Shown here piece by piece: positions 25,102 through 35,828 of a DNA stretch of 36,344 nt. How positions within the stretch are numbered: position 1 is the stretch's first letter; every line of letters begins with the position of its first letter. The notes beneath the pieces were generated by a model, which saw only the letters and a list, made by a program, of their open reading frames with translations, was not told the origin of the DNA and ran no database searches. The stretch comes from a virus (taxonomy: Duplodnaviria; Heunggongvirae; Uroviricota; Caudoviricetes), in the IMG/VR virus record IMGVR_UViG_2541047905_000018. The stretch is one strand, 5' to 3'. Both the position numbers and the translations under genes were made by a program.

Positions 25102-25107
25102 GCATGT

Positions 25108-25137
25108 AAAAAGGCCCCAACACATGTGCGTGGGGCC
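25108..25137 (-). terminator. rho-independent terminator closing the 230-nt ORF-less unit downstream of the tRNAs
   Basis: The minus strand reads GGCCCCA-cgcacatgtgt-TGGGGCC followed by T5. Confidence 0.6.
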
Positions 25138-25167
25138 TGAGAGTATACATGGTTTCAGTCAACTGCA

Positions 25168-25189
25168 TGGTGCCGGGTGCCTCCCGGTG
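25168..25189 (-). repeat. 22-nt element CACCGGGAGGCACCCGGCACCA (copy 1, sense in the late transcript)
   Basis: Exact 22/22 match to 34354-34375 on the plus strand. It contains a CCGGG-aggca-CCCGG hairpin and tandem GGCACC. Confidence 0.8.
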
Positions 25190-25337
25190 AATTCAGTACC
25201 AGCACCTGAATCCGCGATTATCCCATATACCTACTCGCTGATTGCCCATCCGCACAGGGGGATTCACCATGCCAGTTTCTTTTAACAAACTCCCCGCAAA
25301 ACAGACAACTGTCAACCGTCTGAATTGTGAGACATTT

Positions 25338-25377: not shown

Positions 25378-25454
25378 TGGCGCGTTGTACTGGATTCGAA
25401 CCAGTGACCGATTGCTTAGAAGGCAATTGCTCTGTCCGGTTGAGCTAACAACGC
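25378..25454 (-). tRNA. tRNA-Arg (anticodon UCU)
   Basis: I folded the cloverleaf by hand: acceptor GCGTTGT/ACAACGC, D arm GCTC..GAGC, anticodon arm ATTGC-CTTCTAA-GCAAT, T arm ACTGG-TTCGAAT-CCAGT, CCA encoded. Confidence 0.9.
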
Positions 25455-25467
25455 AGGGTACAGATAA

Positions 25468-25544
25468 TGGACCGCCATCGAGGACTCGAACCCCGCGCAA
25501 CCAGCTTCGAAGGCTGGTGCTCTATCCTGATGAGCTAATGGCGG
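25468..25544 (-). tRNA. tRNA-Arg (anticodon UCG)
   Basis: Cloverleaf: acceptor CCGCCAT/ATGGCGG, anticodon arm CCAGC-CTTCGAA-GCTGG, T arm CGGGG-TTCGAGT-CCTCG, CCA encoded. Confidence 0.85.
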
Positions 25545-25551
25545 TATGTGA

Positions 25552-25627
25552 TGGTGGCCCTTGCTGGATTTGAACCAGCGACCTGGCGATTATGAGTCGC
25601 TCGCTCTCACCACTGAGCTAAAGGGCC
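25552..25627 (-). tRNA. tRNA with CAU anticodon (Met, or Ile2 if lysidine-modified; the ileZ-like position of Stx phages)
   Basis: Cloverleaf: acceptor GGCCCTT/AAGGGCC, anticodon arm GCGA-CTCATAA-TCGC, T arm GCTGG-TTCAAAT-CCAGC, CCA encoded. Confidence 0.85.
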
Positions 25628-26097: not shown

Positions 26098-26478
26098 TTA
26101 CTTTTTTAGCAGCCAGTCGTCCATCTCCAGTCTTACCCCCAGCACAGACAAACATCCGTCAATAAACCCTTCGGCTATCTGCATCTCAATTCGTATTGCT
26201 TTTTCGCTTTTCTTTCTCGTCCTGGCTATCTGTCTTTTTGATATTCGCAACAAATAATGAGCAATGAGAAGCGAATACTCCTCAGGTTTTTTCTGCTTCA
26301 GACGAGCAAGACAGTTTTCAATGATAAGTCCGTCATCATCGCAGCAGGCCGGACGTGGTTTAGTGGCAGATGGTAAAAGTCCTTTGAATCCGGCAGCGAT
26401 CGGAGAATAGTCCACCCCGGTGTTACCACTTGCAGCCCATGCCCCCCAGCGTTCAAGAACCATCTGAATATCACGCAT
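26098..26478 (-). CDS. Q: late-gene antiterminator Q
   Basis: MRDIQMVLERWGAWAA... is the typical phage antitermination Q family opening. I chose the ATG at 26478, which has GGAG upstream. Position is immediately before the terminator, tRNAs and lysis genes. Confidence 0.85.
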   Translation of the reverse strand: MRDIQMVLERWGAWAASGNTGVDYSPIAAGFKGLLPSATKPRPACCDDDGLIIENCLARLKQKKPEEYSLLIAHYLLRISKRQIARTRKKSEKAIRIEMQIAEGFIDGCLSVLGVRLEMDDWLLKK

Positions 26479-26495
26479 CAACTTTCTCCACAAAA

Positions 26496-28744: not shown

Positions 28745-29067
28745 ACTTTCAGCCCCCTCTCATGTAACCAGTGGGCTGCACGCAGCCTGGCGTTTTCCTC
28801 ACCAGCAAGCAGTGCGCGGATAATCCCGGCCACCTCGCTGTCGTCGTCCTTCACCGCGGTATGAAGCGTGATGCCCCGGGCCACGCCACGCTTTATCGTG
28901 ATGACGCCTTTTTTCTCCAGTGCGCGAAGATGCTCCACCGCTGCATTCACTGAACGGTATCCCAGCATGGTAGCCACCTCCTGATTGGTTGGCGGGAAGC
29001 CACGTTCTTTCTGGTAAGAAATCAGCATATCCAGCACCTGCTGCTGGCATTGAGTTAACGTCGTCAT
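28741..29067 (-). CDS. LexA DNA-binding-domain-only protein (no S24 peptidase domain)
   Basis: MTTLTQCQQQVLDMLISYQKERGFPPTNQEVATMLGYRSVNAAVEHLRALEKKGVITIKRGVARGITL aligns by eye with LexA residues 1-69. The remaining ~40 aa are unrelated and lack the Ser/Lys dyad. Start and stop are coupled to neighbours (TAATG and ATGA). Confidence 0.8.
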   Translation of the reverse strand: MTTLTQCQQQVLDMLISYQKERGFPPTNQEVATMLGYRSVNAAVEHLRALEKKGVITIKRGVARGITLHTAVKDDDSEVAGIIRALLAGEENARLRAAHWLHERGLKV

Positions 29068-29555
29068 TAAGCCCCCACGTAATTCCCTGACAGATACCAC
29101 TCTTCACCCGATACAGCGCGCTTGCTGCTTTTCCGTAAACACCGCTCACGACGCGCAAGAAAATTGTTTCGCTCTTGCTGGGAGTGGCTTTCACGGAATG
29201 CCGCCATCCACACCGTTGCAGCACGACGGTATAAGCCCCTGGACTCCAGTTCTTCAGCCTGACGGGTCAGGCACAAAATCACCCAGGGGTCGTTAGTGCC
29301 GACATAGAAATTGCTCACAGGTATGGTTTCAAGAACAGGTTGCAGTTTCTCCTCCTGCGATATCTCAGCCTGGTGTGGGAAATGTCTGCGTGTTTTCCCT
29401 TCACAACGGTGAGCCACACGCCCACTCTGACGTAACTTGCTTGCTGACTGCAGTACGCGCTGCCGTGAGTAACCTGCAAAAGCATCCGCAATGTCTCCGG
29501 AAGTACAGCCCGGATGGGCTTCAATGAATTTCTGAACTTCATTCAAAAGACTCAT
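29067..29555 (-). CDS. PerC/Pch-like regulator (wHTH-like N-terminus plus PerC-type C-terminal motif)
   Basis: The C-terminal segment LESRGLYRRAATVWMAAFRESHSQQERNNFLARRERCL resembles the PerC/PchA motif (..GLWRRAATRWL....R..W....R..C). I chose the ATG at 29555, after AGGGGG. Confidence 0.55.
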   Translation of the reverse strand: MSLLNEVQKFIEAHPGCTSGDIADAFAGYSRQRVLQSASKLRQSGRVAHRCEGKTRRHFPHQAEISQEEKLQPVLETIPVSNFYVGTNDPWVILCLTRQAEELESRGLYRRAATVWMAAFRESHSQQERNNFLARRERCLRKSSKRAVSGEEWYLSGNYVGA

Positions 29556-29557
29556 GA

Positions 29558-30499
29558 TCACCCCCTGAATCCTTCCGGGATCTGGCTGTAGTCCACGTTG
29601 TCGTAACTGGCTTTGAAGTACGGGTCCTCACGTTTTTCTGTGTGCGTGCTGACGGACGGCGATAAGCGCAGGGAAAGCTCATCCCATTTTTCCCGCAACT
29701 TCGACGGGCTGAGCACGTTACGGCACCAGAACGGATCACGGCTGACGCGGCTGTACATCTCGCAGATTTGTTTGTGAGTACGACCATCCTGCACACACAT
29801 CAGGCGAATTTCGTTTGCCCATGCTGTCCAGTTCGGTTCTTTGGGACGAACCACCTCGCCGTCACATTCGGCGGCCTGCTCGTACAGGGCGATGATTTTT
29901 TTCCAGAGCCACTGTGCGCAGGTCAAATCATCCTGCGTTCCCCACTGGCGCTTTTTAGGGCTGAATACAACCGCATCAGGATGGCGAGTTAAAAAATCCT
30001 GTTCAGCCGTCTGCGTGTCCGGTTGCAAAGCGTCCGGACGAGAAGGTTTTTTATCTGACGGATCATGTTTTGATTTTACTGACGGATCCCCGCCAGATTC
30101 TGACGGGTGAAAACACGCTTTTTTGCCAGATTTCGACGCATCAAATTTTGACGGGTCAGATTTTGATGCGTCAGATTTTGACGGGTCAGAATCTGACAGT
30201 TGAGAAAATGCCGCAGCCTGAAGCTTCGCAACGTTAAGCTGATAAACATTCGACGCATTGCGGTTACCCTGGCGACGCGCCTTACGCGTTAACCAGCCTT
30301 CTGCTTCCAGCCGTGCGATAGCCGTTCTGACGGTACTCATCCCCGCGCCAATCTGGCGGGCAATGGTTTCAATTGATGGCCAGCACACACCCTCGTCATT
30401 ACTGAAATCAGCCAGACGGGCCATAATTGCCACACTGGATAATTTCATGCCTGACGCTGCGCAACCATCCCATACATAGCCGGTTAATTTGGTGCTCAC
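29558..30499 (-). CDS. replication initiator (HTH N-terminal domain, iterons inside the gene)
   Basis: 313 aa with an N-terminal wHTH (VCWPSIETIARQIGAGMSTVRTAIARLEAEGWL). The central PSKSD/ASKSD repeats are encoded by the iterons. Position is equivalent to lambda O. Confidence 0.8.
   Translation of the reverse strand: MSTKLTGYVWDGCAASGMKLSSVAIMARLADFSNDEGVCWPSIETIARQIGAGMSTVRTAIARLEAEGWLTRKARRQGNRNASNVYQLNVAKLQAAAFSQLSDSDPSKSDASKSDPSKFDASKSGKKACFHPSESGGDPSVKSKHDPSDKKPSRPDALQPDTQTAEQDFLTRHPDAVVFSPKKRQWGTQDDLTCAQWLWKKIIALYEQAAECDGEVVRPKEPNWTAWANEIRLMCVQDGRTHKQICEMYSRVSRDPFWCRNVLSPSKLREKWDELSLRLSPSVSTHTEKREDPYFKASYDNVDYSQIPEGFRG
30064..30200. repeat. origin-like iteron array (15-bp repeats, consensus TCAGATTTTGACGGG)
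   Basis: Five contiguous 15-mers at 30126-30200 (CCAGATTTCGACGCA, TCAAATTTTGACGGG, TCAGATTTTGATGCG, TCAGATTTTGACGGG, TCAGAATCTGACAGT). Degenerate copies lie near 30093 and 30071. Confidence 0.8.
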
Positions 30500-31053
30500 T
30501 TACGCACCTCCTTATGCTTTTCGTTCAGTTCCGAGTCCACCAGCCCGGCAACGAATACACCATCGTTGATGTAGTCGTAGAGCGATGAAGCCAGCGGAGA
30601 CTGAACTGAAACCAGCATCGGATAAAGTTGTTCTAACCAAACGCGGTGAATTTCAGCCATGTAGAGGTAAACAACGTGGGCATTGTGCGCGACACATGAA
30701 GTATCAACCTTTCCGATCAGCGCCTGTTCCATCTGGTTAAAGGCATTGATGTATGCCTCTTTGAACTGGGCAGCACGTTTACCCGTGAAACCCATAGCAA
30801 GAAACGCAAAGCCATCGCGGGTTATTTGATAGCAAGGTAGTTTGCGAGTACCGCCGTTGGGCTGGCGTACCAAAATTGATGTCTCCGCAAAATTGCGGGC
30901 ACAAAACTCTGGAGAACAATCCAAAATGCGAATCTTTTTCAGAACATCGTCATGACGTTTAGAGAAGAAGTCAGCAACAGCCAAAGAAGATGTAACAGCC
31001 TGACCATCAACGATGGCAATTTCAGGTTGAGAGAGGGTTGGGAGAGTAGTCAT
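30496..31053 (-). CDS. Rha-family phage regulatory protein
   Basis: From the ATG at 31053: MTTLPTLSQPEIAIVDGQAVTSSLAVADFFSKRHDDVLKKIRIL..., a typical Rha domain. The supplied ORF extends to 31353, but that extension contains terminator hairpins (see the leader feature at 31054-31330). Confidence 0.7.
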   Translation of the reverse strand: MTTLPTLSQPEIAIVDGQAVTSSLAVADFFSKRHDDVLKKIRILDCSPEFCARNFAETSILVRQPNGGTRKLPCYQITRDGFAFLAMGFTGKRAAQFKEAYINAFNQMEQALIGKVDTSCVAHNAHVVYLYMAEIHRVWLEQLYPMLVSVQSPLASSLYDYINDGVFVAGLVDSELNEKHKEVRK

Positions 31054-31330
31054 AGTGACAGCCCCGGTAGTCAGTTTTTTAGAAAACTCACCACATGGGA
31101 CGCCAATCACAGAGGTGGTGAGACGTACAGGGTTGGCGTTACCGGAGACTACCGAACCCGGCCCGACCGAAGTCGGCCCTGTACGCCCCACCATAATTTG
31201 GGCGTAGCAATGCTCATGACACGAAAAAACCGCATGAGCGCGGTTATGCTCAGTAATCAATTTCAGGACGCCAATCCCGGCAACGGATTTTGCCGCTGCC
31301 AGAACAATATAACGCCCAGAATTATCAGAA
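31054..31330 (-). promoter_or_regulatory. highly structured leader with intrinsic terminators upstream of rha and the replication gene (tR1-like region)
   Basis: On the minus strand: AACCGC-gctcat-GCGGTT followed by T6 (31224-31245); TACGCCC...GGGCGTA; a 9-bp stem CGTACAGGG/CCCTGTACG enclosing CCGAC-UUCG-GUCGG; and CTCACCAC...GTGGTGAG followed by TTTTCT (31081-31122). Confidence 0.55.
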
Positions 31331-31522
31331 TCAATCATTACTGGTTTGCTCATGATCGTCCCTTATCTCCCTGAACTTTTGCCTGAAATGCTCAAGCGGG
31401 CTGAAGCATTCATGTTCATAGCCTTCACGGAGGTAGATAACCCGTTGTGTTTCCGGCTCCCAACGAATGACTCTGACGGGCACTCCGTAGTGATCTTTGA
31501 ACCAGCGGTTAACTTGTCGCAA
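31331..31522 (-). CDS. DUF4222-like small protein
   Basis: ...[44 protein letters not shown] fits my recollection of DUF4222. The likely start is the TTG at 31522, with AAGGAG 8 nt upstream. The supplied ORF begins at a GTG at 31564. Confidence 0.5.
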
Positions 31523-31701: not shown

Positions 31702-32339
31702 GCGTTAGTTTCTCCACAACCAGAAGCAATCGACGCCACGACGCCCGGAGCTGCACACTCGCGGGCGTTACTCTTTTCCGGCGCACAAAAAACACGAAAT
31801 AACAGTGTTAAATGCTCCTGCCACTTCGCCATTACTTGGTAGCTGTTCTCTTCGATTTGCTCACGCTCAGCTTGGTCAATAACTCCATCAGCAGTTGCCT
31901 TGCGTAAGTACTGGGAATGCTTGCCAATCCATTCTATTGACTCCATCAGCCGCTGATTAATGTCACCATTGTCAATGTCATCAATGACCACCAGCGGCAC
32001 AAACACCCCATTACTACGACGGGCTATTGCATCCGTTACATGCCTGGTACCACTGGCATCCTGTAAAACCATGGCCCACTCAAGTGGAAAAATTTGATCC
32101 CCACCGCTACGCAGTCTGTTATGCAATTGATCTTTTGCTGGGGTGATATCATCAGATTTATACAAACCAAGAATTTCTGCTGCTTCCTCATAGCCATGAG
32201 GTAAATCAGCAATCGTTCTTCGTATTGCTGCCACCAGCCATGCTGGTTGCTTATCAACTTTCCATTCAGGTTCTTTACCCACGTTTAAGCCCTCATATCT
32301 GTGGTTTCTGTAAATCGATTTATCCATTAGATTTTTCAT
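31698..32339 (-). CDS. CII-like (CP76-type) regulatory protein, in the YdaT/CII position
   Basis: It directly follows the Cro-like gene. Its general pattern (..YEEAAEILG.....L.NRL.....[14 protein letters not shown]..) resembles the phage regulatory CII (CP76) family as I remember it. The start is uncertain (32339 or 32327). Confidence 0.45.
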
Positions 32340-32520
32340 AAAGCTCAGGTTTAAATGGCAACCGTCCGCAAGTTCTATATGCAGCCTCTGCTGCACGTCC
32401 TTTTGGAATTAACTGGCCAGGACGGTTTCGCCACTGATAAACGGCTTCAGTTGTTATGCCGAAAAAAGCAGCAACTTTCTCAATGCTGCCGAAGTAGCTT
32501 TCGATATCGTCAGTCGTCAT
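32320..32520 (-). CDS. Cro-like repressor of the DicC/P22-Cro type
   Basis: 66 aa. ..YFGSIEKVAAFFGITTEAVYQWRNRPGQLIPKGRAAE.. parallels DicC (YFGSKTKLAQAAGIRLASLYSWKGDLVPEGRAMR). GGAGGG is the SD. It is divergent from the CI gene. Confidence 0.8.
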   Translation of the reverse strand: MTTDDIESYFGSIEKVAAFFGITTEAVYQWRNRPGQLIPKGRAAEAAYRTCGRLPFKPELYEKSNG

Positions 32521-32617: not shown

Positions 32618-33244
32618 ATGGAAACGGTTGGTCAGCGTATAAAAGCTCTGAGAAGAGTTACCAGAACGTCCCAGAAAGAATTGGGTAAATTTTGTGGAGT
32701 AAGTGACGTTGCTGTGGGGTACTGGGAGAAAGACATCAATGTCCCTGGTGGGGAAGCACTTTCAAAATTAGCGAAGTTCTTCAATACGTCAATAGATTAC
32801 ATTCTTTATGGTGCGGAGTTTGAAGGCAAACTCGTCACAAACATGCGCAGAGTTCCTGTAATCTCGTGGGTTCAGGCTGGGCAGTTTACTGAGTGCAGGA
32901 CAGCAGAAGTGTTTAGTGAAGTAGACAAGTGGGTAGATACATCATTAAAGATTGGTGATAACTCATTTGCATTGGAGGTTAAAGGCGACTCCATGACTAA
33001 CCCTAACGGCCTCCCAACAATACCAGAAGGCGCAACAGTGATTGTAGATCCTGATGCAGAACCCCGGCATGGAAAAATAGTCATCGCTAGACTTGATGGA
33101 ACAAACGAAGCCACAGTAAAAAAATTAGTTATCGATGGCCCTCAAAAGTTTTTAGTGCCATTAAATCCCCGGTACCCCAACATCCCGATCAATGGTAATT
33201 GCCTCATCATTGGTGTAGTCAAAGGAGTTCAATACGAACTCTAG
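32618..33244 (+). CDS. cI: CI-type repressor (XRE HTH plus S24 LexA-like peptidase domain)
   Basis: 208 aa. N-terminal HTH (QKELGKFCGVSDVAVGYWEKD) and C-terminal S24 domain (VKGDSMTNP...ATVKKL Ser/Lys dyad). Confidence 0.9.
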   Translation: METVGQRIKALRRVTRTSQKELGKFCGVSDVAVGYWEKDINVPGGEALSKLAKFFNTSIDYILYGAEFEGKLVTNMRRVPVISWVQAGQFTECRTAEVFSEVDKWVDTSLKIGDNSFALEVKGDSMTNPNGLPTIPEGATVIVDPDAEPRHGKIVIARLDGTNEATVKKLVIDGPQKFLVPLNPRYPNIPINGNCLIIGVVKGVQYEL

Positions 33245-33266
33245 CCCCCCTTTTCTCTAACCAAAA

Positions 33267-33299
33267 CACCGAACTAAGAAAAGTTTGGTGTTTTCTCTT
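33267..33299 (+). terminator. rho-independent terminator after cI
   Basis: CACCGAAC-taagaaaa-GTTTGGTG (one G-U pair) followed by TTTTCTCTT. Confidence 0.5.
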
Positions 33300-33326
33300 G
33301 CCATCAAAACTAAGTTAAGTTAGATT
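33298..33326 (+). promoter_or_regulatory. candidate pL (TTGCCA-17 nt-TAGATT) with an OL-like operator in the spacer
   Basis: The operator-like ACTAAGTTAAGTTAGA at 33309-33324 lies between the -35 and -10 elements. It shares its half-site with the OR sites. Confidence 0.55.
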
Positions 33327-33409
33327 TTATATCAAAGATAACGAACAGGCAGGACGCCCACGAAGTAGCCGCCCGGGGCATATGAAGTCCAGGATGATTC
33401 GTTAGCAAC

Positions 33410-33432
33410 AAAAAAGCGCCCTACAGGACGCT
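33410..33432 (-). terminator. minus-strand terminator beyond the 5' end of the 97-aa gene (would end the A2 transcript)
   Basis: The minus strand reads AGCGTCC-tgtag-GGCGCT (one bulged base) followed by T6. Confidence 0.5.
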
Positions 33433-33477
33433 TAGCTCTTTAACAATCTTGGTATCCCCGTAACAAAAGAGGGTTCT

Positions 33478-33771
33478 ATGGTCATATTCTGTGCTTACGT
33501 TCATCCTAATGGATTTTTTATCAGCACCAACCAACAAGACGAATTCTGGATTCTACTTAGTAAGCAGGTCGGATGGGGACGATTCTGTCTAATCCGACCA
33601 GAATCAGAATTTACAGAGAATGGAGGGCTTTTTGAATTACGTGAAATACGTCCGGCAGATGGTCAAGCCCCTGACCAAGTAATCGAATCGTCAGCTGTTT
33701 TATGGCGTCGGCAGGAAGCGTTCGAAGCTGAGAGAGTAATTTCTTCTTATCTTCAGTCGTGGCAGAAGTAG
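33478..33771 (+). CDS. unknown 97-aa protein (copy B2 of the duplicated module), first ORF after pL
   Basis: GAGGG SD 5 nt upstream. Paralogue of 22581-22937. Differences between the copies in the non-overlapped part fall mainly at third codon positions. Confidence 0.65.
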   Translation: MVIFCAYVHPNGFFISTNQQDEFWILLSKQVGWGRFCLIRPESEFTENGGLFELREIRPADGQAPDQVIESSAVLWRRQEAFEAERVISSYLQSWQK

Positions 33772-34114
33772 AACTATTGATGATACGTTCAAGTTCACAG
33801 AGAGTCTCATCATGCAATCTTATTGTCATAATCCCAAGAATAGCTTTAAGACCTCCATCATCACGAATGAAATCAATTCCATCTTTAGTAATTCTTAATT
33901 CAGGAATATTTATATTTATGCCATCCAAGTAATAATCAAGAGCATTCTTAATCAAGCCATGTTCTTCGAGATAAATTAAGTTCGAAATTAGGACATTATC
34001 ATCTCCAAATGCGTCACGAACAGACTGCAACGCATCATCAGAAATTTCATAAGGATGAGCATCATACAGTATTTGTAACAACTGCCTTTGTGCACTTCTA
34101 TCAAATTTGTCCAT
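33611..34114 (-). CDS. unknown 167-aa protein, winged-helix-like N-terminal half (copy A2 of the duplicated module)
   Basis: Paralogue of 22283-22798. It is convergent with B2 and overlaps it by 161 nt. A candidate promoter TTGATA-16 nt-GATTAT ends 5 nt before the ATG, so the mRNA may be leaderless. Confidence 0.7.
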   Translation of the reverse strand: MDKFDRSAQRQLLQILYDAHPYEISDDALQSVRDAFGDDNVLISNLIYLEEHGLIKNALDYYLDGININIPELRITKDGIDFIRDDGGLKAILGIMTIRLHDETLCELERIINSSTSATTEDKKKLLSQLRTLPADAIKQLTIRLLGQGLDHLPDVFHVIQKALHSL

Positions 34115-34353
34115 CTTAAATAATCACCATGTTATTGGGGGTATCAAGATTAACCGAATCCTTGTTGTTGGGGAATAACCAGGTCCACCTCGCCTGATGT
34201 GGCTAAAAGCAGGCACATAACAGCTAAGTATTTTCAACCAGAGAGAATCCTTAGCGTTGTGGTGAATGCGGCTCAGCGCACGCGGGTTAAGGTTGAGGCT
34301 GACAGTCGACCTTCTGTGGATACCCACCCGCCTGGTGTGCAACCTTCGCCAGG

Positions 34354-34375
34354 CACCGGGAGGCACCCGGCACCA
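34354..34375 (+). repeat. 22-nt element CACCGGGAGGCACCCGGCACCA (copy 2, sense in the pL transcript)
   Basis: Exact reverse-complement match to 25168-25189. It lies about 15 nt upstream of the DicF-like sequence. Confidence 0.8.
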
Positions 34376-34438
34376 CAACAGCCACTGCTTTGGCGGTACC
34401 AGTTTGTACACTTGCTTCCGGCTGGTACCGCTCTTTTT
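34375..34438 (+). ncRNA. dicF: DicF-like small RNA with its own terminator
   Basis: TTTGGCGGTACCAGTTTGTAC matches the K-12 DicF core TTTGGCGGTATCAGTTTTAC at 18 of 20 positions. It ends in GCGGTACCAG...CTGGTACCGC followed by TCTTTTT. The synteny (repressor, pL, small ORFs, dicF) matches the Qin dicB operon. The 5' end is not determinable from sequence. Confidence 0.65.
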
Positions 34439-34527
34439 ACAAAACAGAGAAGAGCATCACCGGACGACGGGCTCATAACCCAATCCATCCGGGCGGCTGC
34501 CACCGCAGGTGTTCTTCTCTGTTTTGT
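34439..34527 (+). repeat. long inverted repeat (15-bp perfect stem ACAAAACAGAGAAGA / TCTTCTCTGTTTTGT) directly after the DicF-like terminator
   Basis: Read directly from the sequence. The arms enclose about 59 nt containing further GC hairpins. It is a candidate RNase III processing stem, which is inference. Confidence 0.6.
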
Positions 34528-34575
34528 GGAGAAACCAACCGACCTTGCAGGGTCGATATGATGAGGAGCAGCAAA

Positions 34576-34938
34576 ATGGCTAGCGAACGCAGTACTGATG
34601 TGCAGGCATTTATCGGGGAGCTGGACGGCGGCGTATTTGAAACCAAAATCGGCGCAGTTCTCAGTGAAGTCGCTTCCGGTGTGATGAACACGAAAACCAA
34701 AGGTAAGGTCTCGCTCAACCTGGAAATCGAACCGTTTGATGAGAACCGTGTGAAAATCAAACACAAACTCTCATATGTTCGCCCGACTAACCGCGGGAAA
34801 ATTTCTGAAGAAGACACCACCGAAACGCCGATGTATGTCAATCGCGGTGGTCGCCTGACTATTCTGCAGGAAGACCAGGGACAATTACTGACTCTTGCCG
34901 GTGAGCCTGACGGAAAACTCCGCGCAGCAGGTCATTAA
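34576..34938 (+). CDS. yfdP: YfdP-like protein
   Basis: 120 aa from the ATG at 34576 (GAGGAG SD 6 nt upstream). I recognise the sequence and size as CPS-53 YfdP-like, and it is followed by yfdQ and yfdR homologues. Confidence 0.7.
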   Translation: MASERSTDVQAFIGELDGGVFETKIGAVLSEVASGVMNTKTKGKVSLNLEIEPFDENRVKIKHKLSYVRPTNRGKISEEDTTETPMYVNRGGRLTILQEDQGQLLTLAGEPDGKLRAAGH

Positions 34939-35003: not shown

Positions 35004-35828
35004 ATGTCTCAGAACTTAGACGCAACCGCAATTAATCAAATCCATGCCCTTATTTCTGCTCAGGGTGTTAATGAAATTATCAGTAAGATTGGTGCCGATG
35101 CTGTGGCATTGCCTGAGAATTTCCGCATTCATGATCTGGAAAAATTTAATTTAAATCGCTTCCGTTTCCGTGGTGCGCTTTCCACTGCCAGCATCGATGA
35201 CTTTACCCGTTATTCTAAAGATCTTGCAGATGAAGGCACCCGCTGCTTTATCGATGCCGATAATATGCGAGCCATCAGTGTGCTTAACCTGGGTACTATT
35301 GATGAACCAGGTCACGCAGATAACACCGCCACTCTCAAACTGAAAAAGACAGCACCGTTCTCTGCCCTGCTGTCTGTTAATGGCGAGCGTAACTCCCAGA
35401 AGTCACTGGCAGAATGGATTGAAGACTGGGCCGACTATCTTGTGGGCTTTGATGCTAATGGTGACGCTATTAAGGCAACAAAAGCGGCTGCGGCAGTCCG
35501 TAAAATCACGATTGAAGCAAACCAGACCGCTGATTTTGAAGATAATGACTTCAGCGGCAAACGCTCTTTGATGGAGTCTGTCGAAGCGAAAACCAAAGAC
35601 ATTATGCCAGTAGCATTTGAGTTTAAATGCGTTCCGTTTGAAGGCCTGAAAGAACGTCCGTTTAAATTACGCCTCAGCATTATCACTGGTGATCGCCCTG
35701 TACTGGTTCTGCGCATTATTCAGCTGGAAGCAGTGCAGGAAGAAATGGCTAACGAATTTCGTGATCTGCTTGTTGAAAAATTCAAAGACAGCAAAGTAGA
35801 AACCTTTATTGGTACTTTCACCGCCTGA
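35004..35828 (+). CDS. yfdQ: YfdQ-like protein (DUF2303)
   Basis: 274 aa. [26 protein letters not shown]... matches my recollection of K-12 YfdQ. Confidence 0.75.

Follow-up and report, generated by a model that had tools for sequence, protein, structure and literature searches.

A widespread prophage leader upstream of yfdP appears to carry a variant of sRNA-17 with a terminator hairpin remotely related to DicF

In the Caudoviricetes record IMGVR_UViG_2541047905_000018 (36,344 nucleotides (nt), analyzed over its whole length and called the window below), the stretch 34115–34575 lies between an antisense gene for a protein of 167 amino acids (aa) and the plus-strand gene yfdP and is dense in hairpins, which raises the question of what it specifies. 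The original prediction had placed in it, as part of the pL operon, a DicF-like small RNA (sRNA) of about 50–70 nt. According to the sequence comparisons described here, the element appears to be a recombinant variant of the published sRNA-17 within a widespread, unannotated prophage leader. The best explanation, which is held with a confidence somewhat above even, is that positions 34185–34575 are the conserved early-left leader (yfdP, yfdQ, yfdR) of an SfV/ST64B/mEp460-type lambdoid prophage. The core 34256–34437 would be the local sRNA-17 allele, with a 5′ domain, a linker and a terminator hairpin that is remotely related to DicF and would serve as a terminator gate. The features concerned are the following.

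33298–33326, (+), probable pL promoter TTGCCA-17-TAGATT, found by promoter scan, the function being presumed
34185–34216, (+), upstream hairpin, GCCUG at 34192–34196 with CAGGC at 34210–34214, read from the upstream sequences of related loci
34256–34379, (+), multi-branch 5′ domain of the minimum-energy fold, closed by a 9-bp helix of GUUGUGGUG (34256–34264) with CACCACAAC (34371–34379)
34380–34391, (+), single-stranded linker AGCCACUGCUUU, 12 nt
34389–34405, (+), DicF-core match TTTGGCGGTACCAGTTT, spanning the linker end, the hairpin 5′ arm and the loop start
34392–34438, (+), intrinsic terminator, stem 34392–34404/34420–34432, U-tract 34434–34438
34434–34533, (+), long hairpin of about 27 bp, starting in the U-tract
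34540–34555, (+), small GC hairpin CGACC-UUGCAG-GGUCG, shortly before the ribosome-binding site of yfdP
34576–34938, (+), yfdP, first gene of the early-left operon, from the Prokaryotic Genome Annotation Pipeline (PGAP) annotation of an identical locus
35004–35828, (+), yfdQ, with a DUF2303 match

The described counterpart of the element is sRNA-17 of Escherichia coli K1 strain RS218, which is 193 nt long by 5′/3′ rapid amplification of cDNA ends (RACE), gives a Northern signal, is commoner in stationary phase and was linked to the survival of meningitis strains in blood (PMC7719688). It lies in an mEp460-like prophage directly upstream of yfdP, and the authors report no Rfam homologue for it. 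Deletion of sRNA-17 changed 48 transcripts, and the DNA upstream of it bound phospho-ArcA in vitro. With a cat cassette in its place, yfdP rose from 0.49 to 47 reads (96-fold) and yfdR from 0 to 8.5 (PMC7719688), as expected from the loss of a terminator before yfdP. The sequence of sRNA-17, taken from the alignment in the supplement of that paper, runs GTTGTGGTGAATGCGCAGGC...CTGGTACCGCTCTTTT and equals positions 2383–2575 of the mEp460 locus (L004); its span thus reaches from the initial base of the closing helix to the fourth U of the terminator. The first 15 and the last 67 nt of the window element are identical to sRNA-17, and the two share the 9-bp helix, the linker and the terminator hairpin; the middle is unalignable. 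The middle of the window allele is of the SfV/ST64B type, the only type that matches the STnc100 model (see below). The window equivalent is positions 34256–34437, a predicted RNA of approximately 182 nt as against 193 nt, with the 3′ end placed at about 34437 by homology. The upstream DNA also differs between the two, and with it any promoter or ArcA site. An O177:H21 strain (CP016546) that is 100% identical to the window across the stretch is listed in the sRNA-17 paper as carrying a ‘degenerative sRNA-17’; the links to DicF, to STnc100 and to the yfdP leader were not noted by its authors (PMC7719688). The window allele is also present unchanged in AR_0085 (CP029741).

A search among 5426 complete E. 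coli genomes matched the 462-nt stretch in 2782 of them, with a coverage of at least 80% in 1610. The stretch is also present in phages SfV, SfII, SfIV, ST64B, mEp460, cdtI and Stx2c phages, as well as in Shigella and Salmonella. In addition, 31 loci from many Enterobacterales were fetched with YfdP as the anchor, and the leader was found upstream of yfdP homologues in E. coli, Shigella, Salmonella (ST64B), Mangrovibacter, Kosakonia, Phytobacter, Providencia and others. Most of the 31 loci follow a common plan, in which the 5′ domain is followed by a single-stranded stretch, usually GCUGUGUGUAGUC, and by a terminator hairpin UUGGCGG...CCGCC(C)UUUUUAC; then come a long hairpin that starts from the U-tract, GGAGAAACUAAC, a small GC hairpin and the ribosome-binding site. 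The leader is covered by no genome annotation and no Rfam family, and the literature yielded nothing usable on sRNAs in prophage ST64B of Salmonella SL1344. The two K-12-type CPS-53 loci (L007 and L015) have iteron-like GATTTTGACGGGTCA repeats in front of yfdP in place of the entire leader, and the standard laboratory strain accordingly has no RNA of the window type.

For the terminator hairpins, a covariance model (R1) was built from 19 yfdP-leader hairpins of other loci and genera, the window type and DicF being excluded. R1 matched the window at 34384–34441 (44.6 bits, E-value 1e-8) and the ST64B locus (L037) at 1643–1730 (43.1 bits). The position of the window hairpin is that of the family, between the 5′ domain and the long hairpin and upstream of yfdP. 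The K-12 dicF locus (L003) was matched at 2880–2943 with 22.4 bits and a rough E-value of about 0.004, co-extensively with the gene; no further match outside the family was found at E ≤ 10 in 90 kb. In the other direction, the leader of Leclercia scored 28.4 bits against the Rfam model of DicF. These two matches indicate that the DicF and leader hairpins are remote relatives. As judged by such model comparisons, the kinship is real but remote, and the copy in the window is a member of the leader family.

The conserved upstream hairpin at 34185–34216 is the point where the leaders of different phages turn alike, just past variable inserted genes; in the Limnobaculum locus (L027), it contains GCCGG/CCGGC, which reads as a compensatory change. 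Inside the closing helix of the 5′ domain, an AAU linker is followed by a first hairpin (34268–34283), by two or three hairpins in the middle and by a last one, CCGGG-AGGCA-CCCGG at 34356–34370, which abuts the 3′ strand of the helix. In an E-value scan of 901 nt, STnc100 (RF02076) matched 34238–34440 at model positions 1–206 with 36.0 bits (E-value 4.9e-6), a score below the Rfam gathering threshold of 47 bits. A true STnc100 copy with 133 bits is present at 25102–25301 (−), and the 20-mer CACCGGGAGGCACCCGGCAC occurs in the window only in that copy and in the 5′ domain. This copy belongs to the late operon behind Q; the last of three phage tRNAs precedes it by approximately 80 nt, and the holin gene follows shortly after it.

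The same layout was obtained in independent folds of SfV, ST64B, mEp460, six other genera, the STnc100 copy of the window and the element between dicF and dicB in Qin, as well as of the 115 nt just 5′ of dicF. Compensatory variation accompanies it in 15 related RNAs. The closing helix varies as GCAUGGUG/CACCAUGC, GUUGUGAC/GUCACAAC and GUUGUGGC/GCUGCAAC, and the last stem as CCGGG/CCCGG, CCUGG/CCAGG and GGUGG/CCACC, while the AGGCA loop is invariant. STnc100 and PasD have been described as sRNAs with many targets (bioRxiv 10.64898/2026.05.13.724894). Like them, the window RNA is prophage-borne and has a closing helix, several arms and then a terminator; it aligns to the full STnc100 model and has the UGGUGAAU and CACCGGGAGGCACCCGGCACCA blocks in common with them, together with the AAU linker and the abutting last hairpin. 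It differs from STnc100 and PasD in its location in the early-left leader, as they lie between Q/tRNAs (or stx) and the lysis genes, and in a terminator of another type. Its 5′ end is probably at the helix base, whereas the STnc100 model starts about 29 nt before the helix. PasB was considered as a published name for the window RNA and was rejected, because PasB lies among phage structural genes.

The terminator stem is formed by GCGGTACCAG and CTGGTACCGC, with 10 perfect bp or 13 bp when G-U pairs are included, and is followed by TCTTTTT; its fold has −21.2 kcal/mol with z = −4.0, and none of 200 shuffles was as stable. In the aligned stem, 84.9% of cells are paired as compared with 35–49% in slid controls, five pairs show double changes, and the observed covariation score was reached by none of 500 shuffles. 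The DicF-core match TTTGGCGGTACCAGTTT agrees with nt 13–29 of K-12 DicF at 16 of 17 positions ungapped, or at 19 of 21 over 34389–34409 with one gap; the pattern TTTGGCGGTAYCAGTTT has one mismatch-free occurrence in the window, and the chance expectation of an exact match was calculated by us as about 1e-5. Most relatives carry the longer conserved single-stranded GCUGUGUGUAGUC 5′ of the hairpin (e.g., L005, L018, L024, L034 and L037), and this looks like a typical sRNA seed signature. It is missing from the window, mEp460, cdtI and Stx2c-phage alleles, and the window aligns to R1 with an 11-nt gap where the relatives carry GUGUGUAGUC. In six loci (L009, L019, L024, L028, L031 and L033), the loop contains an insert of 30–40 nt that lengthens the stem and includes a conserved GA(A/U)GAUAAUGUUCUG and an AGGAGG-like stretch. 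A boxA-like CGCTCTTTTTACAA across the U-tract at 34429 was taken as chance, because it is unconserved in the relatives. A pairing of the GCUGUGUGUAG stretch with the 5′ arm of the long hairpin was dropped after inspection by eye; the two do not covary, because SfV joins that stretch with a window-type arm.

The center of the long hairpin is a perfect pairing of 34439–34453 with 34513–34527 (15 bp). Among 17 related leaders, 27 consensus pairs were counted, 13 of them with compensatory changes, and the fold of the larger interval 34230–34580 has z = −6.0. The small GC hairpin that follows has an equivalent, CGGCGG..CCGCC, in the relatives. The sequence observations of the original prediction all stand: the DicF-core match at 34389–34409, the 10-bp stem followed by TCTTTTT and the long-range stem at 34439–34527 are all present, the last being the center of a helix that extends over 34434–34533. 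Its description of the stretch as non-coding and structured was also correct, though it overlooked both the identity with sRNA-17 and the resemblance of the 5′ domain to STnc100.

The stretch was rightly placed in the pL operon as well, since the probable pL at 33298–33326 overlaps an operator-like repeat, AAACTAAGTT, that is also present in the cro/cI intergenic region. The hairpin of the cI terminator (33263–33294) immediately precedes pL. Approximately 10 nt past the −10 box, a further conserved structure begins, which is listed here together with the other mapped features of the prophage.

25378–25627, (−), three tRNAs, detected by ARAGORN
26098–26493, (−), Q antiterminator (PF06530), with the replication and nin-type genes
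29067–29561, (−), PerC/Pch-like protein
31111–31299, (−), C4 and isrK RNAs in the Rha/Ash antirepressor region
32320–32520, (−), cro-like gene; it and a CII-like gene are among the left-running genes of the lambdoid prophage
32618–33244, (+), LexA-like repressor
33338–33408, (+), pL-proximal leader element, comprising two small helices plus a hairpin whose stem covaries
33611–34114, (−), gene of 167 aa with no match in Pfam, antisense between pL and the leader

The minus strand also encodes a lysozyme and a holin of the phage-21 type. A PerC/Pch-like protein had been predicted in the same prophage, and the product of 29067–29561 does match PF06069 with 39.1 bits. The 167-aa gene has a terminator of its own (33433–33414), and different inserted genes occupy the same spot in SfV and mEp460. 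The C4 antisense RNA (82.3 bits) lies beside isrK (68.6 bits) in the 5′ part of an Ash/Rha-type open reading frame (ORF) at 30496–31353 (−); the pair looks like a P1/P7-style antirepressor control module within a lambdoid prophage.

The pL-proximal element was found in 15 loci of many genera, directly after a −10-like hexamer, with a mean identity of 86%, three covarying pairs and the invariant runs CAGGCAGGACGCC, ACGAAGUAGCCGCC and GGAUGAUUCG. The covariance model built from it (R2) scores the window at 93.5 bits. The position of the element corresponds to that of putL or nutL. Identification with HK022 put was rejected: the folds are unlike, R2 misses both putL and putR, and ACGAAC and CAGGAUGA are the only short motifs in common. 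HK022 put was rejected as a model for the 5′ domain too, as STnc100 and other Rfam models gave no match in the put region. About 100 nt past the probable pL start, GCTCTTTAACAA at 33435–33446 (+) agrees at 12 of 13 positions with UGCUCUUUAACAA, which we take to be the rrn boxA consensus; it directly follows the hairpin 33414–33433, which on the opposite strand is the terminator of the 167-aa gene.

Most likely, the leader acts ahead of yfdP as a terminator gate and as a cassette for processing, the sRNA being a by-product. Transcripts arriving from upstream, either from pL at about 33300 or by read-through from the region of inserted genes, would mostly stop at the terminator. Such termination would keep yfdP–yfdR silent and release a stable RNA of approximately 180 nt. 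Transcripts that read through would be cut in the hairpin of about 27 bp, presumably by RNase III, and the upstream RNA would be freed from the yfdP message. The released RNA may also act on other transcripts, as was reported for STnc100 and PasD; the window allele itself does not contain the likely seed of the family, GUGUGUAGUC, and has no predicted action on ftsZ. A comparable arrangement is that of phage lambda, in which nutL and then an RNase III hairpin precede N. In both, the leader that separates pL from the first early-left gene is structured, and a long hairpin directly precedes the ribosome-binding site of that gene; in the window, there is neither an N gene nor a recognizable boxB, and an intrinsic terminator lies inside the leader.

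The build of the element also resembles that of the DicF precursor. DicF, with forms of 190 nt and 53 nt, originates from a polycistronic transcript of the pL type through termination and the action of RNase III and RNase E (bioRxiv 10.1101/2023.04.14.536235). Since the same fold layout occurs just 5′ of dicF, the region that gives the 190-nt form shares the plan of window 34256–34438, that is, a folded domain, a linker and a terminator hairpin. In K-12 Qin, dicF is flanked by two folded domains of the same layout. The 5′ one (L003 2752–2866), with GUUGUGGC/GCUGCAAC as its closing helix, represents the body of the 190-nt form, while the 3′ one (L003 2953–3084), between dicF and dicB, matches STnc100 with a sub-threshold 34.4 bits. 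The 190-nt DicF precursor, sRNA-17, STnc100, PasD and the unnamed yfdP-leader RNAs could form one superfamily, in which a domain closed by a GUUGUGG-type helix is followed by a short single-stranded stretch and a terminator hairpin; the chances of a common origin are evenly balanced in our view.

Several points weigh against the explanation of the locus as an early-left leader with a terminator gate. Two of them concern the passage of the terminator in lytic growth: no N gene was seen, and the pL-proximal element is not detectably put-like, R2 having missed HK022 putL and putR. The STnc100 score is sub-threshold, and the evidence for a link to DicF consists of the 17-nt core match and a single weak model match with a rough E-value. 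The middle part of the window allele, about 100 nt, is unlike sRNA-17; the ends and the existence of the RNA are known from a relative (RS218), and the RNA of the window allele is predicted by comparison with it. The long hairpin is probably the RNase III site parting the upstream RNA from the yfdP mRNA, but this cleavage is a prediction drawn from its length and perfection. Read-through from the promoter of the cat cassette may be an equally simple cause of the yfdP rise. Finally, the authors of sRNA-17 propose for it an ArcA-controlled promoter of its own and an action on other genes, with no leader by-product (PMC7719688). An independent gene for a trans-acting sRNA, with a promoter just upstream of 34256 and regulated by oxygen through ArcA, the effect on yfdP being incidental, is a possible but tentative alternative. 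It accommodates the Northern signal, the stationary-phase rise, the phospho-ArcA binding in vitro and the 48 changed transcripts, as well as the description of the related STnc100 and PasD as many-target sRNAs, and a weak −10-like GAGAAT is present at 34243–34248, 7–8 nt before 34256. However, there is no acceptable −35 box, the promoter scan reported no site here, and the sequence 5′ of the RNA start is unconserved between the mEp460 and window types, though the start is conserved. A 5′ end placed exactly where a 9-bp helix begins is as compatible with processing as with initiation, the window allele has no conserved single-stranded seed-like stretch, and the strongest effects of the deletion were on the genes immediately downstream. 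It is also conceivable, though quite unlikely, that the 5′ domain is the functional heart of the leader in cis, either as a nut/put-like polymerase-modifying signal or as a tRNA-like processing signal, with the hairpin RNA resembling a tRNA 3′ trailer. In two Phytobacter loci (L021 1221–1298 and L026 1186–1264; Phytobacter ursingii), a real tRNA (ARAGORN: Ile, anticodon AAT; Rfam: 52.8 bits) stands exactly in the place of the domain, and its acceptor stem, GUUGUGG/CCGCAAC, replaces and nearly matches the closing helix GUUGUGGUG/CACCACAAC. The layout of the domain is tRNA-like: a linker of 2–3 nt connects the closing helix to a short first arm, and the last arm, of 5 bp, directly adjoins the 3′ strand. 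The 5′ end of sRNA-17 as mapped by RACE coincides with the initial base of the closing helix. The AGGCA loop is invariant while its stem covaries, and a boxA-like UGCUCUUU lies just upstream in many relatives. Given the Phytobacter tRNA in register, this layout and the 5′ end at the helix, the domain might be a processing signal of the tRNA kind. By this analogy, it might be a tRNA-derived or tRNA-mimicking signal that punctuates prophage operon transcripts and frees the hairpin RNA like a tRNA 3′ trailer, which we regard as doubtful. ARAGORN, which detected only the three tRNAs at 25378–25627 in the window, and the Rfam tRNA model (E ≤ 10, 33900–34800) found nothing tRNA-like in the domain, the last loop has 5 nt and is no T-loop, and the early start of the STnc100 model places the 5′ end of that RNA away from the helix. 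Furthermore, the boxA-like sequence is absent from the window copy, no N-like gene was seen, and the same domain occurs downstream of Q, where an extra antiterminator is unneeded.

A true DicF orthologue, i.e., an RNA of 50–70 nt that blocks both the translation of ftsZ and cell division and, in enterohaemorrhagic E. coli, feeds into the control of pchA, is very unlikely. It would fit the 17-nt match to the DicF core, the same type of operon next to a repressor gene, the same style of terminator with a GGCGG..CCGCC base, a U-tract and a preceding UUU (34389–34438), the weak reciprocal match of R1 to dicF and the Leclercia relative that bridges both groups. However, the Rfam DicF model (RF00039; gathering threshold 48 bits), which scored K-12 dicF as a positive control at 76.7 bits, gave no match, either in the gathering scan of the whole window or, with a limit of E ≤ 10, in searches of 901 nt and of 86 nt. 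The similarity comprises only the last three single-stranded bases, the hairpin 5′ arm and three bases at the start of the loop; the remainder of the loop differs, and the DicF 5′ seed UUUCUGGUGAC is replaced by AGCCACUGC. It has been reported that the 3′ region and loop of DicF pair with ftsZ and its 5′ end with xylR (PMC5069750). For ftsZ positions −25 to +12, the predicted duplex had −13.5 kcal/mol with the window RNA versus −22.5 kcal/mol with DicF. When the window RNA was shuffled, 89% of the resulting sequences paired at least as well, and their mean was better than the actual duplex; the method is crude, with DicF itself outperforming no more than 90% of its own shuffled versions, although the result points clearly in one direction. 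Duplex energies calculated for a long target window were set aside as non-discriminating, and the narrower one was used for this reason. At the homologous locus, an RNA of 193 nt was detected (PMC7719688), in contrast to the originally predicted 50–70 nt, and the genes around differ too, as the window has no ydfABC-type ORFs upstream and has yfdP downstream instead of dicB. The window RNA is thus not a functional DicF, since both the DicF 5′ seed and the ftsZ-pairing loop are lacking; from the original DicF assignment, the remote kinship and the shared architecture remain, while the family membership and the function do not. The probability that the stretch encodes a small protein is negligible. 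ORFs of suitable size exist on it (e.g., 34199–34561, 120 aa, and 34266–34478, 70 aa), and hypothetical proteins are annotated here in some phage records. However, their frames are unconserved, being broken or fused differently in SfV, where an 8-nt length difference fuses another frame to yfdP, and in ST64B, which has other ORFs; the protein-coding reading was rejected on this ground. In addition, the variation is compensatory in the RNA stems, and PGAP annotates nothing between the 167-aa gene and yfdP, whose start at 34576 agrees with the predicted end of the non-coding stretch at 34575.

Recognition of the leader as such would stop its mislabelling as dicF, and it ties the isolated report on sRNA-17 to a widespread prophage leader. 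The loss of the terminator offers a simpler reading of the strongest phenotype in that report, the rise of yfdP. The common build of sRNA-17, STnc100 and the precursor of DicF suggests an origin of several prophage sRNAs in a single kind of leader cassette.

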